The notes under the pieces: model-generated
What the model was told of the DNA's origin: nothing
Database searches by the model: none
What the model saw: the letters and a program-made list of their open reading frames with translations, nothing else
Virus record (IMG/VR): IMGVR_UViG_3300029476_000079
Length of the DNA: 4,171 nt
Source of the DNA: a virus
Taxonomy: Duplodnaviria > Heunggongvirae > Uroviricota > Caudoviricetes
Strand: one strand, 5' to 3'
Part shown: positions 1 through 4,171 of the stretch, in pieces
How the letters are laid out: each line of letters opens with the position of its first letter
Position numbering within the stretch: the stretch's first letter is position 1
Program-made: the position numbers and the translations under genes

Positions 1-153
1 AAATACAAAATCTATAACCATGCATTAATTCATTCACAAGACCTGATCATGCTGCGGTCTGGTGAATTTTCTAAATCGCCTATTCGAGTTTCATTTTGCC
101 CGTTCTGTGGTGAAAGTCTGAAAACGTGGGAAGCGGAGGCAACCAGTGAATAA
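1..153 (+). CDS. Hypothetical protein, 5'-truncated by window start (C-terminal 50 aa visible; ends ...VSFCPFCGESLKTWEAEATSE)
   Basis: Frame 1 is open from base 1 to TAA at 151-153. Internal ATG at 49 has no Shine-Dalgarno, so the gene most likely starts upstream of the window. Its stop overlaps the GTG start of the next gene (GTGAATAA, 146-153), the same coupled arrangement as the rest of the operon. C-terminal CPxCG motif. Confidence 0.45.
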   Translation, partial: KYKIYNHALIHSQDLIMLRSGEFSKSPIRVSFCPFCGESLKTWEAEATSE

Positions 154-790
154 CCGCTTTTACCTGATGTGCTTGCGTGAAACTGTGGGTAATAACGCCT
201 CATTCCATTGCCATAACGGCAATGGTTACAGTTCTGATATCGATCGCGCTCATGTTTACACGCTGGAAGAAGCCCAAAAAGCCTGGAATTGTGGGCGAGA
301 TATCGATCAGCCTGTTTGCGCGGATAGCGTGGATGCAATGGCAGTGTGGCACGTTGATTGCCAGTACATCCCTACAGAAAGCCTGATTGAGTCAGATTGC
401 ACTGCGTATGTGGCCTACAAAAAAGGTAGCTGGAACGGCAACGATGTTTACTGGCTTCAACACGGTGGATTGCCAACAGATGACTTCAGTAAAGCGACCA
501 TCTTTAGCGTCGCCAACAAAAACGAACCAGGAATAGTTTGGTTGCCATTTTCCATTGCTGATGCAGCAAAGCGCCGGACGTTCAATATCAATAAATTTAA
601 CCGCAGAACAATGGTTCAGGGCGCAGGTTTGGTCATGCCTGACTGGTTGAAAAAGCAGAACAGAAGAAAGAAGTCGCGAAGCGGGAAGGTGCGTTGGAAT
701 TGTCCGCATTGCGGAAAAATCACCTGGCAGTACANNNNNNNNNNNNNNNNNNNNNNNNNNNNNNNNNNNNGTGAAGGATGGCGAGAATGA
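146..790 (+). CDS. Hypothetical prophage protein (~214 aa), basic C-terminal region followed by a CPHCG motif; residues encoded by 735-770 undetermined
   Basis: GTG start at 146 preceded by GGAGG (135-139) with 6-nt spacing. Open frame to TGA 788-790, which overlaps the ATG of the next gene (ATGA at 787-790). The frame passes through the 36-nt N-run, so the exact C-terminus is unverifiable. No family recognised. Confidence 0.6.
   Translation: MNNRFYLMCLRETVGNNASFHCHNGNGYSSDIDRAHVYTLEEAQKAWNCGRDIDQPVCADSVDAMAVWHVDCQYIPTESLIESDCTAYVAYKKGSWNGNDVYWLQHGGLPTDDFSKATIFSVANKNEPGIVWLPFSIADAAKRRTFNINKFNRRTMVQGAGLVMPDWLKKQNRRKKSRSGKVRWNCPHCGKITWQYXXXXXXXXXXXXXEGWRE
735..770. other. Run of 36 undetermined bases (N): assembly gap or masked segment
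   Basis: Literal n characters in the sequence. Length is a multiple of 3 and the flanking ORF stays in frame across it. Confidence 0.95.
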
Positions 791-1355
791 CAATTGACTA
801 TCAGGTACTGCGTGAGGCGGCAGAAAAGGCAACACCAGACGAATGGGTCGCATTTATTTCGACGGATACTGGTACTTATGCGGTGCACACGCCCGGTGAT
901 GAACGATGTGAAGACGTTATCAAATGGACCGGCTTTGATGGACAGAAAAATGCAGAGAACAACGCTCGTTATGTTGCCGCGTTCAACCCAAAGGTTGCTT
1001 TGGCACTACTGGATGAACGGGAAAGAAACCAGCAATACATCAAACGCCGCGACCAGGAGAACGAGGATATTGCGCTTACGGTTGGGAAGCTGCGCGTTGA
1101 GCTTGAAGCNNNNNNNNNNNNNNNNNNNNNNNNNNNNNNNNNNNNNNNNNNNTTATCTCTGATGGGTGCAAGCGTATTGCTGAACTGGAAGCGCGGGAAG
1201 TTCAATTACCGACTCGCTACGACCTTCGATATGGACACCCGATAAATGCAGATGAGCGACAAGTCATGATACCTAAAGAAAATGGCAGTTGGCTTTACCT
1301 GATTGACCTAGAACACGCATTACGCGTCGCTGACATTCGTATCAAAGGAGAGTGA
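787..1355 (+). CDS. Ead/Ea22-like prophage early protein, reading frame interrupted at the N-run 1110-1152
   Basis: ATG 787 with AAGGA (774-778) 8 nt upstream (alternative in-frame ATG at 778). N-terminal part in frame 1 reads MTIDYQVLREAAEKATPDEW...ARYVAAFNPKVALALLDERERNQQYIKRRDQENEDIALTVGKLRVELEA. After the 43-nt N-run, an uninterrupted start-less ORF in frame 0 (1155-1355) reads ISDGCKRIAELEAREVQLPTRYDLRYGHPINADERQVMIPKENGSWLYLIDLEHALRVADIRIKGE and ends at TGA 1353-1355, one base before the next start codon. The NP.VALALLDE and RIAELEAR motifs match my recollection of the Ead/Ea22 family; this is not database-verified. Confidence 0.55.
1110..1152. other. Run of 43 undetermined bases (N) inside the Ead/Ea22-like gene
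   Basis: Literal n characters. Length is not a multiple of 3 and the coding frame differs on the two sides (frame 1 before, frame 0 after). Confidence 0.95.
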
Positions 1356-1356
1356 T

Positions 1357-1620
1357 ATGGCCACTTTAACAAAAAAAGAACGGGCATGGTTGAATGAATT
1401 ACAGGACGTTCTTGATCGCTGTCCATCACCAAAAAAAATTGGTTTTTACACCATTGGCGATAAAACCATTTACCTGTATGACCTACGCCGCATGGATGAA
1501 ATCATGGAGGCTCTTGATAATCGTTCGTCGATGGATTGGTGTGTTGCTGTCCATGATATGAATGCAGGGTTTGATGAAAAGATTTTGTTCCCCTCATCAG
1601 TTGAAAGCACTGCGGGTTAA
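1357..1620 (+). CDS. Hypothetical protein, 87 aa (MATLTKKERAWLNELQDVLDRCPSPKK...)
   Basis: ATG 1357 preceded by AAAGGAGAG (1344-1352). The start lies 1 nt after the upstream stop. Ends at TAA 1618-1620, which is embedded in the SD of the next gene. No family recognised. Confidence 0.7.
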   Translation: MATLTKKERAWLNELQDVLDRCPSPKKIGFYTIGDKTIYLYDLRRMDEIMEALDNRSSMDWCVAVHDMNAGFDEKILFPSSVESTAG

Positions 1621-1630
1621 GGAGTAACAC

Positions 1631-3175
1631 ATGACCACTATAACCAAAGAGCGACTGCTGACAATCAAGCAGTGGCGCGAAACATACGGACCGGGTAGCA
1701 ACGTTGTACTGCCAGCAGAAGAAGCGGAAGAACTGGCACGGATTGCACTGGCATCATTGGAAGCAGATCCAGTTAAACGAGTTAACTCAGATCAGATGCA
1801 CCGAGTCTGCTTAGAAGCTAATCGCTATTTAGATAAATATGACGCGATGGCGAAAGAGGTAAATAAGTTGCTTGGACGCATCGCCCCGCCAGCGCCAGTA
1901 TTTAACGGCGAATACGGTGACGCATATCAGGGCGCTCGTGAAGACCTGTCCATCTGGAAACGGCGAGCGCTTGAAGCTGATGAGCACGTTCGGCGACTGG
2001 AGCAAATCAATGACCACATGGTGAAAGAGGCGCAGGGAGAATCACGCATGGGCGAGCCTGTAATACGTGAGCCAGCACCGGTAGTGCCTGAAGAAGCAAC
2101 TCCGGAAAACGTAGAAATGCTCTCTGGCTATGTTTCAACGTACAAATTAACCGATAGCGAGCGCGATATTGCTGCCGAAATATGGAACGCCTGCCGCGCC
2201 GCCATGCTTCAGTCCGGAAACTTTCGGGAAAACAAGAATTCGTCAACCAATAATTTTCGGGAAATCGCGGAAACGTCAACCAACTATCCGGCAATTCCTA
2301 GTGAGGTGTTGTCCGCAATCCTGAAGGTTGCCAGGATTCGTGCCGATTTCGATGATTTTGACGGTGACAGGCGAGGTATCGGTGATTGTCTGGATGAGGC
2401 CGAGCAAGAGCTTATCGTTACCATTAACAAATATGCCAGTCAGTTGGCAGCAGAACCGATAGCGACTAATGACGTTCGAGAGCAAACAGCCGTTCCGCCA
2501 ATACAGGCTGATGTCGCGCAAGCAATTGAAAATCTCAAGCAGAAGTTAGTGGAATGCAATCGCTATAACTACTGCGCAGATGCAGTGAAGAACGTAGAGG
2601 ATGCCTGCCGTGCTGTTAGCTATAGCCAAGCCGACAATCAGCCAGCATCTGGCAACCAGGCTGCCGAATCCAATCGCGGTAATGAGTGGACTGGCAATCC
2701 TGATATTGATAACGCCATCATCATGCTCGACCGCATAGATACGCTGGAAAATTGCGATGATGACCGTATTGAGGCTGTTAAGGCTGTTTTGCGTAGACTG
2801 GCAGGCAACTATCCGGATATTCCGGATAGTTCGGTGCCAGCACCAGGAAAGGGCGTCACCGGTGAACGTATCCGAATTAAGCCGCATGTTTATCGCGAAC
2901 TGGTTAACCGTCTCCACGATACAGCGATCAAGTGTGCTGGCACCCAGCAATTACGAGAAAGAATTAGCCGTGTTTTGGGCGACGTTATTACACCAGATCA
3001 TCATAAACAAGCCGAGAAAAGTGGCCTGGAAAGGTGTCACCTTGAGGCGGCATTAAACATTAAGCCGGGGCATACGCTTGGCATTATTGATGCACTATTG
3101 GTTCATAAGATGGCCAGGGCTTTATTGCCGCTGGTGGCTGAAAAGCATGAGGCGGACCATGCCAACGAAAGCTGA
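1631..3175 (+). CDS. Large hypothetical protein, 514 aa, rich in Asp/Glu/Ala/Asn, with an internal 11-aa tandem repeat and an acidic DFDDFDGD cluster; function unknown
   Basis: ATG 1631 preceded by AAGGAG (1619-1624) at 6-nt spacing. A 1545-nt uninterrupted ORF, the longest in the window, makes all antisense track ORFs inside it implausible. No catalytic motif confidently recognised. Confidence 0.8.
   Translation: MTTITKERLLTIKQWRETYGPGSNVVLPAEEAEELARIALASLEADPVKRVNSDQMHRVCLEANRYLDKYDAMAKEVNKLLGRIAPPAPVFNGEYGDAYQGAREDLSIWKRRALEADEHVRRLEQINDHMVKEAQGESRMGEPVIREPAPVVPEEATPENVEMLSGYVSTYKLTDSERDIAAEIWNACRAAMLQSGNFRENKNSSTNNFREIAETSTNYPAIPSEVLSAILKVARIRADFDDFDGDRRGIGDCLDEAEQELIVTINKYASQLAAEPIATNDVREQTAVPPIQADVAQAIENLKQKLVECNRYNYCADAVKNVEDACRAVSYSQADNQPASGNQAAESNRGNEWTGNPDIDNAIIMLDRIDTLENCDDDRIEAVKAVLRRLAGNYPDIPDSSVPAPGKGVTGERIRIKPHVYRELVNRLHDTAIKCAGTQQLRERISRVLGDVITPDHHKQAEKSGLERCHLEAALNIKPGHTLGIIDALLVHKMARALLPLVAEKHEADHANES
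2219..2284 (+). repeat. Imperfect in-frame tandem direct repeat, 2 x 33 bp, inside the 514-aa CDS
   Basis: aactttcgggaaaacaagaattcgtcaaccaat (2219-2251) versus aattttcgggaaatcgcggaaacgtcaaccaac (2252-2284), 25/33 identical. Encodes NFRENKNSSTN / NFREIAETSTN. Confidence 0.6.
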
Positions 3176-3443
3176 ATTACAGGTGCGCGTAGATGAGCTT
3201 GAAAAAGAGAACGCGAGCCTCAAAAAAATGCTGTCGCGGGCGGAAAGGGAATTATCAGGCAAATTATTGCCAGAAGAACTGCCACCAGCAGATATACCTG
3301 ATCGAGTGTCCTGGTGGATGAAGTATTTCCGTGCACCGTGGGAGGCGTTTTGGTGCTACGACCATCGCAGATGGTGTGATGAACTTGATAGCAGTTTTCC
3401 CTACTTTGCGGAAGGGAACACCTGCCCTCAATGCAGGGGATAG
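3159..3443 (+). CDS. Hypothetical small protein, 94 aa: N-terminal coiled-coil-like segment plus C-terminal four-Cys zinc-ribbon-like motif (C-x6-C-x15-C-x2-C)
   Basis: ATG 3159 preceded by GAGG (3149-3152) at 6-nt spacing. Overlaps the stop of the 514-aa gene by 17 nt. Ends at TAG 3441-3443. The track's longer start at 3078 has no SD and lies inside the upstream gene. Sequence MPTKAELQVRVDELEKENASLKKMLSRAERELSGK...WCYDHRRWCDELDSSFPYFAEGNTCPQCRG. Confidence 0.6.
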   Translation: MPTKAELQVRVDELEKENASLKKMLSRAERELSGKLLPEELPPADIPDRVSWWMKYFRAPWEAFWCYDHRRWCDELDSSFPYFAEGNTCPQCRG

Positions 3444-3501
3444 CATTTGACGAAATCGATCACCCTATCCTGAACTTCAGAAAGAAGGTCTTTTTCACGC
3501 G

Positions 3502-3529
3502 CCAGGACGTCAGGATATTGACGTTCTGG
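3502..3529. repeat. Imperfect inverted repeat (10-bp arms, 8-nt loop): CCAGGACGTC-aggatatt-GACGTTCTGG
   Basis: Arms are complementary at 9/10 positions; the mismatch would be a G-U pair in RNA. Lies about 60 nt downstream of the last operon gene. No U-run follows on either strand, so it is not a canonical intrinsic terminator. Confidence 0.35.
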
Positions 3530-3810
3530 CCTTATCAGATGCCGGAGCTTCCCATTAAGCAGAATGGCCTCAGAAAACACTTTTACGCTGTGCTTTATCC
3601 CCTCTGTTTCACTTTTCAGCGTCAAAATAAAGCGCAATTGCTTATTAGCCTGATTCGGATTCAATACACGAATTTGCAGTTCGTCTATGCTGTTTCGCAA
3701 TGGGATTGATGCCACCACACTGGTGCAGTCTCTGATTGTCTGAATTGAACGGCTAACATTGAGAACGTTATTGTGCATGTGCCTGATCCACTAACTCCTG
3801 GAGGTTTCTT

Positions 3811-3957
3811 GTGTCAGATCGAAATATAGCAGCTAAAAGCCAGGAAGAGCGAGACAAGGTGAACGTAGACCTTGCCGCCAGCGGCGTTGCTTACAAACCC
3901 CGCTTTCACAAACTATGCCTTTTCAATGTATACTGTGTGAATAAACAGTATCATTAA
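3811..3957 (+). CDS. Candidate small ORF, 48 aa (MSDRNIAAKSQEERDKVNVDLAASGVAYKPRFHKLCLFNVYCVNKQYH)
   Basis: GTG 3811 preceded by GGAGG (3800-3804) at 6-nt spacing. Open to TAA 3955-3957. The 3' third overlaps the promoter and LexA box of the downstream gene. Too short to judge by composition; below the ORF-track length cutoff. Confidence 0.25.
   Translation: MSDRNIAAKSQEERDKVNVDLAASGVAYKPRFHKLCLFNVYCVNKQYH
3905..3934 (+). promoter_or_regulatory. Candidate sigma70 promoter for the UmuD'-like gene: -35 TTCACA (3905-3910), 18-nt spacer, -10 TATACT (3929-3934)
   Basis: Hexamers resemble TTGACA/TATAAT. The -10 overlaps the LexA box, the usual layout for SOS-repressed promoters. Identified by eye only. 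Confidence 0.4.
3931..3950 (+). promoter_or_regulatory. LexA operator (SOS box) TACTGTGTGAATAAACAGTA
   Basis: Exact CTGT-N8-ACAG core with flanking TA...TA, matching the consensus TACTG(TA)5CAGTA. Lies 17 nt upstream of the ATG of the UmuD'-like gene. The E. coli umuDC operator, as I recall it, is TACTGTATATAAAAACAGTA. Confidence 0.8.
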
Positions 3958-3967
3958 GGTAAAACGC

Positions 3968-4171
3968 TATGGGCTTCCCTTCTCCTGCGGCGGATTATGT
4001 TGAAAGCCGTATTTCTCTTGATCAGCAACTAATCAGACATCCTTCAGCGACCTACTTCATGCGGGCGGCAGACAGCCATCACCGTGAGGGAATATTGCAA
4101 GGTGCTTTGCTGGTGGTTGATTCCTCACTTACTCCGGTTGATGGCTCACTGCTTATATGCGCTATGGAGGG
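3968..4171 (+). CDS. umuD: UmuD'-like (HumD-like) peptidase S24 family protein, 3'-truncated by window end; natively lacks the N-terminal arm of UmuD
   Basis: ATG 3968 with AGG (3957-3959) 8 nt upstream. Translation [68 protein letters not shown] aligns to E. coli UmuD residues 25 onward ([68 protein letters not shown]). In-frame stop at 3938-3940 with no start codon between it and 3968, so the protein genuinely begins at the Cys24/Gly25 cleavage-site equivalent. Confidence 0.85.

Follow-up and report, generated by a model that had tools for sequence, protein, structure and literature searches.

For the zinc knuckle of the zinc-ribbon and treble-clef fold groups, the stated consensus is the pentapeptide CPXCG (Kaur & Subramanian 2016, PMC4999995), and in haloarchaea one-domain zinc-finger micro-proteins with a C(P)XCG motif, of the HVO_2753 type, make up 12-21% of the small proteins (PMC6562870). 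The P1-like phage-plasmids carry a 'variable region 8', which extends from pmgT to humD (PMC9603915), and the P1 genes of this region were found to be non-essential in a CRISPR interference (CRISPRi) screen (PMC10695390). Here, we describe three small proteins, hereafter A, B and C, encoded in a stretch of 4,171 nucleotides (nt) from a Caudoviricetes virus (IMG/VR record IMGVR_UViG_3300029476_000079), the whole of which is referred to as the window. Each of the three contains the tetrapeptide CPxC, and the original prediction saw in this recurrence a shared zinc-ribbon-like C-terminal module, suggestive of domain shuffling or of a common partner or nucleic-acid binding mode.

We consider it likely that each of the three CPxC(G) motifs forms one half of a structural zinc site of its own, the three sites being located in unrelated small proteins of a mosaic, repressor-controlled and non-essential accessory operon. 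As judged from profile comparisons, A, B and C are evolutionarily unrelated, CPxC(G) is a generic zinc-knuckle signature, and its recurrence is a largely ordinary finding. Two circumstances would account for it, namely that CPxCG is a near-universal zinc-knuckle consensus, and that the early/accessory ('ea/nin-type') regions of temperate phages would be rich in small proteins needing a metal staple to fold. The parts of the three genes, with lengths in amino acids (aa), are the following.

1-153, plus strand: gene A, 3' part (last 50 codons and the stop), truncated at its 5' end; a P7 Upf87.4-like small Cys4 protein of 86-99 aa, PHROG 4030
97-111, plus strand: CPFCG knuckle of A (C69-P70-x-C72-G73 in the 88-aa numbering)
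146-790, plus strand: gene B, 214 aa, GTG start; P7 Upf87.6-like, PHROG 2457
701-715, plus strand: CPHCG, first knuckle of the B ribbon (C186, C189, G190)
755-772, plus strand: second Cys pair of B (C204-x4-C209), lying under the run of N at 735-770 and deduced from relatives
3159-3443, plus strand: gene C, 94 aa, ATG start; PHROG 3797
3354-3365, plus strand: C66-x2-H69, the putative first ligand pair of C, invariant in intact relatives
3375-3377, plus strand: C73 of C, probably not a ligand; V/I/L/F in relatives
3423-3434, plus strand: CPQC, the last ligand pair of C (C89, C92), both invariant in intact P1-type relatives

The three motifs all lie in coding frames, as originally reported, and read FCPFCGESL in A (Cys codons 97-99 and 106-108), NCPHCGK in B (701-703 and 710-712) and TCPQCRG in C (3423-3425 and 3432-3434). 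Two of the proteins extend further than had been supposed: A, thought to end at FCPFCGESL, runs 10 codons further to a stop at 151-153, and B, thought to end just before the N-run, reads on through it to a stop at 788-790. Beyond the three CPxC motifs, no further in-frame CxxC occurs in the window genes. When residues were shuffled within each window protein (20,000 shuffles), the three observed CxxC compared with 0.64 expected (P=0.023) and the three observed CPxC with 0.029 expected, a count of three CPxC being reached in 0/20,000 shuffles. A DNA repeat was rejected as the cause of the recurrence, no DNA-level repeat connecting the three sites.

In each family, four conserved Cys/His ligands arranged in two pairs are invariant or conserved at 90% or more, across 120 homologs of A, 102-120 of B and about 16 of C, and the AlphaFold2 (AF2) models of B and C place the motifs at a hairpin turn or at the start of a helix, as is typical of zinc fingers. 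From ligand conservation and these models, each CPxC motif very probably belongs to a zinc site, and this part of the original reading is upheld. Family A comprises 59 close relatives in a word-indexed search, and 239 were detected when 1.8 billion representatives were searched in full with a hidden Markov model (HMM). Among 120 of the latter, aligned at 23-43% identity, C6, C16, C69 and P70 are invariant, with C72 and G73 conserved at 90% or more. The partner pair of CPFCG is an invariant N-terminal C-x9-C, located about 52 residues upstream and outside the window; zinc would tie this pair to the C-terminal CPFCG and close a single domain of about 85 aa. Because the site spans the whole protein, A has no separable C-terminal module. 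A and 6 of the 120 relatives (these six at E<=0.01) give weak matches to Pfam DUF6980 over the strand and CPxCG region, with 14.7-16.6 bits against a cut-off of 27 bits. A match of the A profile to archaeal TFS4/RpoM-2 in the PDB sequence search (E=1.3e-3) was discarded after falling to E=0.21 with a broader profile; the corresponding comparison with NCBIfam TransFacS4 gave E=0.016.

For family B, 140 relatives were found, the identity falling to 47% in hosts that include Yersinia, Pantoea, Acinetobacter and Methyloprofundus. In the early regions of prophages, B is conserved at 47-66% identity, over a range that extends from Escherichia to Yersinia, Acinetobacter and Methyloprofundus. C186, C189 and G190 of its ribbon are invariant across 102-120 homologs. 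Recovery of the masked bases 735-770, which had been proposed as a check for a second Cys pair, did reveal one: the gap also measures 36 nt in three relatives with 98% identical flanks, where it encodes SPYDFEGC(R/S)DYNC, and the two unmasked letters GT at 771-772 agree with a TGT codon for Cys209. C204 is present in 113/113 homologs and C209 in 108/114, and the full Cys arrangement reads C-x2-C-x14-C-x4-C. The AF2 model, with a predicted local distance difference test (pLDDT) score of 93.6, predicts an N-terminal alpha/beta domain of about 170 aa, a Lys/Arg-rich basic linker with a helix and a C-terminal C4 ribbon, whose knuckle is placed in a hairpin between strands 182-185 and 192-195 (pLDDT about 90 there). 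Such an arrangement would be typical of nucleic-acid-binding ribbons, and by analogy the linker and ribbon suggest nucleic-acid binding. Foldseek searches with the model found no structural neighbour in the PDB (best E=0.94) and unnamed fragments only in BFVD, and the N-terminal domain as modelled may be an undescribed fold. Among the relatives of B, sub-threshold matches are scattered over many zinc-ribbon Pfam families.

Further Cys and His residues of B, namely C9, H21, C/H72 (59 Cys, 55 His) and C85 (window about 170-402), are kept in most, not all, homologs, and the Cys/His exchange at position 72 may mean that the N-terminal domain holds a further metal site, of a facultative kind. The label 'putative tyrosine protein phosphatase' carried by Upf87.6 in P7 was not retained: Cys22 of FHCHNG is present in 87/117 homologs (R/G/A elsewhere), and there is no match to a phosphatase family.

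Family C comprises 33 clusters, many of them truncated or frameshifted. In its intact members (about 16 homologs), C66, H69, C89 and C92 are invariant, and C73, the second Cys of the original prediction, is replaced by V, L or F. The C-x6-C-x15-C-x2-C arrangement first proposed is literally present in the window copy, but family conservation favours C66, H69, C89 and C92 as the ligands. More distant homologs detected by tblastn carry C..H, V and CPGC at the equivalent places in Klebsiella phage LASTA, CDDH, I and CKCQHC in a Vibrio phage, and, in P22-like homologs, CPEC instead of C..H together with F at the C73 position. An exchange of H for C at position 69 is the behaviour expected of a metal ligand, so that the site is read as C-x2-[H/C]-x19-C-x2-C. 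The AF2 model (pLDDT 84) has a long helix at 4-33, strands 65-66 and 71-72 flanking C-x2-H and a helix at 90-93 starting at CPQC, a predicted layout that looks treble-clef-like. A Foldseek search of the PDB with this model returned nothing significant, and in PDB sequence searches with profiles of C and of its C-terminal domain a match to 3jyg was rejected at E=0.43. C is thus modelled as a long N-terminal coiled-coil helix followed by a zinc domain of about 50 aa; the helix, a probable coiled-coil dimer, would present the small C-x2-H...C-x2-C domain, which suggests a dimer presenting two zinc domains.

Paralogs of C lie in tandem with it in plasmid p95_MLI121 (locus L001, 8166-8471), the closest complete relative of the window, and nearby in another phage-plasmid (locus L015, 5170-5466). 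They combine a different N-terminal coiled coil with the same PWE.F.C..H..W.DELD.SFPY...CP.C domain, and gp66 of Klebsiella phage LASTA matches this paralog type. Domain shuffling is therefore real within family C, in which the same zinc domain stands behind different N-terminal coiled coils.

Many database copies of C (P0194, P0195, P0197, P0202, P0207 and D6 orf105) are frameshifted at or near the TTTT run at 3348-3351, just before the Cys66 codon. These copies read the +3 frame (...ATTIADGVMNLIA..., as in the window open reading frame (ORF) 3331-3450) and lose the zinc domain, and some others stop after about 50 aa; recurrent pseudogenization, slippage or sequencing error may lie behind the damaged copies. 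The P22-like homolog of Salmonella phage SE10 (locus L019, about 1501-1845) is located in the nin region and adjoins ninF. It is annotated as a 54-aa C-terminal fragment only, and its ORF reads from MKTISHPGK..., for about 113 aa. Three further homologs (P0181, P0187 and P0189) are named 'antitoxin PHD' by NCBI and UniRef, a name rejected here, as no match to PhdYeFM_antitox appeared in Pfam or NCBIfam even at E<=10 or E<=1. A genuine phd gene lies a few genes downstream of C in relatives, and the name is probably a propagated misannotation.

A, B and C fall into three different PHROGs of unknown function (4030, 2457 and 3797). When all window proteins were scanned against Pfam, NCBIfam, PHROGs and PADLOC, none of the three matched a Pfam, NCBIfam or PADLOC model above cut-off, zinc-ribbon matches in the curated libraries were sub-threshold only, and PADLOC gave no match to known anti-phage defence proteins at E<=0.01. 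A literature search under gene names, accessions and PHROG identifiers found nothing on the families. In hhalign comparisons between the three profiles, whether of full length or of the C-terminal modules alone, the six CPxCG columns align and no more; probabilities were 1.5-12% at full length and 12-61% for the excised modules, the value of 61% (A versus B) resting on these six columns only. The C-terminal alignment proposed with the original prediction thus found no similarity beyond CPxC, so homology is rejected, and the idea of one C-terminal module shuffled among the three proteins is not supported, the architectures being different as well. Ligand order and spacing differ throughout, with C-x9-C-x52-CPxC in A, CPxC-x14-C-x4-C in B and C-x2-H-x19-CPxC in C. 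The knuckle plays three predicted roles: in A it is the last pair and staples the N- and C-termini together, in B it opens a compact C4 ribbon as the first of its two pairs, and in C it is the last, helix-side pair of a CHCC site. In the P22-like homologs of C, CPxC is shifted to the other pair.

The three genes are not a fixed set and travel independently in other phages. Scans with HMMs found neither A nor C in the neighbourhoods of distant B homologs, and neither B nor C in those of A homologs, which are lambdoid nin-like regions of Salmonella and Citrobacter. Homologs of C occur without A or B in a cI-int early region and in another phage-plasmid. In D6, A is present and B is absent, and the converse holds for a P1 isolate. 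An obligatory A-B pair was considered and dropped, A being followed by Ead in D6 and distant B homologs having unrelated upstream genes. Overall, A, B and C are found separately in prophages of Yersinia, Acinetobacter, Methyloprofundus, Salmonella and Citrobacter and in other elements.

Several other explanations of the recurrence deserve consideration. That the motifs are three chance tetrapeptides without structural meaning is scarcely credible: the shortness of the tetrapeptide and the post hoc nature of the enrichment tests speak for it, but no shuffle reached three CPxC, and the motifs and their partner ligands are kept down to 23-30% identity, a conservation that refutes coincidence. DsbA has the active site CPHC, and CPxC is the classic motif of thiol-disulfide oxidoreductases. 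B literally carries CPHC, and the motifs could on this ground be redox-active dithiols of the thioredoxin/DsbA kind and not metal ligands. This is very improbable, given that no thioredoxin-fold Pfam match was obtained, that the x residues vary (position 188 of B is C/H/S/E), that two further invariant Cys/His accompany the pair in each family, and that A, B and C are cytoplasmic as read from their sequences, which lack signal peptides; the modelled B motif, moreover, sits in a beta-hairpin turn and not at a helix N-terminus after a thioredoxin-fold beta-strand. The recombination of one ancestral C-terminal zinc-ribbon module onto three different proteins can draw on the high mosaicism of the region and on the shuffling seen within family C, yet it is highly unlikely in view of the low full-length hhalign probabilities and the six columns behind the highest value, of the lack of any DNA repeat, of the wholly different ligand spacings and partner positions, and of a site in A that leaves no C-terminal module to separate.

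Convergence of function has more in its favour. On this explanation, the zinc modules of unrelated proteins would bind one common target, such as the host RNA polymerase (RNAP), DNA or RNA, and the operon would encode zinc-dependent factors for host takeover or anti-defence that act as a coordinated set. Its genes are tightly packed and translationally coupled (overlaps of 8 nt between A and B and of 17 nt between the 514-aa gene and C), all the CPxC proteins of p95_MLI121 are encoded in it, and the basic linker and ribbon of B weakly resemble eL43 (E=0.05). There are precedents in lambda, where Orf73/TraR binds RNAP (PMC9239242) and Ea8.5 has a homeodomain/zinc-finger fold (PMC7093339). However, A, B and C are found apart in other prophages, which holds even among P1-like elements; they show no similarity to TraR/Orf73 or Ea8.5 and no PADLOC match, and their zinc sites have three different architectures. 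We regard the explanation as improbable, and a common partner of the three proteins as unlikely. A related proposal, that B, and perhaps A and C, are early effectors of a new, zinc-dependent class that serve host takeover or anti-defence and have a new fold, is possible but doubtful; it is prompted by the clustering in the operon, the confident model of B without a PDB neighbour, its basic linker and C4 ribbon, and its wide conservation.

Some observations weigh against the view that these are simply three separate zinc sites sharing a generic signature. The conservation alignments of A and C were partly selected for intact proteins, and the pattern used for selecting C required C..H...C..C, so that independent evidence for the C ligands comes solely from the distant homologs and from the variability of position 73. 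In p95_MLI121 (96-kb genome, 110 intact coding sequences), CxxC occurs in 9/110 coding sequences, and all four CPxC proteins, namely A, B, C and the C paralog, are encoded in one 19-gene operon (Fisher P=6.7e-4, post hoc); counted by family, the figures are 3/18 vs 0/91 (P=3.9e-3, post hoc). This clustering exceeds a purely generic expectation, and a theme common to the functions of these proteins could lie behind it. The matching regions of unrelated prophages nevertheless hold other, unrelated small proteins with CxxC or CPxC, amounting to roughly 10% of neighbouring genes, and with similar cases in regions such as the lambda exo-xis region, the enrichment is a property of phage accessory regions and not of this trio. 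Three separate zinc sites in unrelated proteins thus remain our preferred reading.

The CPxC motif is already known, and A, B and C are uncharacterized families. For neighbouring phage genes that share CPxCG, the present case guards against over-reading, the motif being a zinc-knuckle signature and no evidence of shared ancestry or of a common system. It also allows better annotation of three 'hypothetical' families often met in Escherichia coli phage-plasmids and in Shiga toxin (Stx) and lambdoid prophages: the putative ligand set of C becomes CHCC, the site of A appears to use both termini, the masked Cys pair of B is recovered, and the 'antitoxin PHD' label is unsupported. The sole mildly novel item is family B, a widely conserved and confidently predicted domain without a structural neighbour. 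Should the fold of B prove new and its activity be directed at the host, the family would be of moderate interest for the biology of phage early genes.

By megablast, the window aligns in mosaic pieces, 95-98% identical, with P1/P7/D6-like phage-plasmids from E. coli and Salmonella, and its gene order upstream of hot (polymerase III theta-like), humD and phd/doc is common to p95_MLI121 and the phages P7 and D6. It represents variable region 8 of a P1/P7/D6-like phage-plasmid, upstream of hot and humD. A C1-repressor operator is annotated upstream, at the operon head, in P7, and the description as an early/accessory operon is therefore a fair one. The plus-strand genes A, B, Ead/Ea22-like, 87-aa, 514-aa and C are tightly packed; the stop of A is overlapped by the GTG start of B, and the end of the 514-aa gene by the ATG of C. 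The other features of the window are listed below.

778-1355, plus strand: Ead/Ea22-like gene, interrupted by the N-run at 1110-1152
1357-1620, plus strand: 87-aa protein, PHROG 1714 of unknown function
1631-3175, plus strand: 514-aa mosaic protein, P1 pmgU-like according to the D6 annotation, without CxxC
3428-3778, minus strand: convergent 116-aa ORF, PHROG 2594
3811-3957, plus strand: short hot (polymerase III theta-like) gene
3969-4171, plus strand: 5' part of humD (UmuD-like, S24 peptidase)

The second N-run, at 1110-1152 in the Ead/Ea22-like gene, measures 43 nt, and its counterpart in chromosomal prophages of E. coli whose flanking sequences are 100% identical measures 44 nt (AGCAAAATCAAAACTCAACGAGCAGCGCGAGTATTACGAGGGAG). 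The Ead ORF is in frame only with 44 nt, giving 193 codons including the stop and a protein of 192 aa, so that either a base is missing from the mask or Ead is frameshifted in the window copy. The 514-aa protein is mosaic, as successive parts of it match no fewer than three PHROGs (60, 14306 and 21459). Its gene contains a tandem 33-nt (11-aa) repeat at 2219-2283, encoding NFRENKNSSTN and NFREIAETSTN, and encodes the motif NYP(A/D)IP twice, at 2281-2298 and 2806-2823. The 116-aa ORF is the sole minus-strand gene of the window; it overlaps the last 16 nt of gene C and is also annotated in D6 and RCS47. The hot gene encodes 48 aa matching positions 3-31 of the 70-position Pfam model, and the same short form is annotated in D6.

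Among described systems, the zinc-finger proteins of the lambda exo-xis and P22 nin regions are alike in setting, being encoded in a repressor-controlled early accessory region beside Ead/Ea22-like genes and belonging to the same size class. Lambda Ea8.5 (93 aa; locus L020, 575-856) ends in ...GGNDTCPLCTKHIDD (TCPLC), a C-terminal CPxC knuckle in an analogous early region. Lambda Orf73 is a TraR/DksA-type C4 finger protein, and Orf73/TraR resembles C in its N-terminal helix followed by a CxxC-x17-CxxC domain. Comparison of A, B and C with Ea8.5 and Orf73 by hhalign gave at most 5% (1-3% for Orf73), the NxTCPxC tail alone aligning with Ea8.5, and no PDB sequence match to the solved Ea8.5 homologues was obtained. 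Membership of TraR/DksA finds no zf-dskA_traR Pfam match, and the DxxDxA motif is absent from C as read from its sequence. A is like Pfam DUF6980 in the strand and CPxCG region but lies below the gathering cut-off, so it is not a member.

The ribosomal protein eL43 (L37ae) resembles B in that the basic linker and ribbon align over about 50 residues with several eL43 chains, with 14 residues between the Cys pairs in both. The alignments are, however, not significant (E=0.05-0.7, best 0.051 against PDB chains), the second pair is C-x4-C in B and C-x2-C in eL43, and the context and N-terminal domain of B differ; Pfam Ribosomal_L37ae is absent among the Pfam matches listed for B. With the haloarchaeal HVO_2753-type proteins, A, B and C have in common that they are small, of unknown function and defined mainly by C(P)XCG, and B matches HVO_2753_ZBP below threshold, but the organisms are different, no similarity is significant, and B is a two-domain protein of 214 aa. 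A further likeness is to the zinc knuckle of the Krishna/Grishin classification, through C-P-x-C-G in A and B and C-P-x-C in C, each with two further conserved Cys/His ligands; in the models, the knuckle of B is placed at a beta-hairpin turn, and the site of C resembles a knuckle combined with a helix start, as in treble clefs. All three proteins differ from the classical examples in scoring below the cut-off of every curated zinc-ribbon family. In A, one ligand pair lies near each end of the protein, with about 52 residues between the two, and in C the CPxC would be the helix-side pair, with C-x2-H as the knuckle-side pair.

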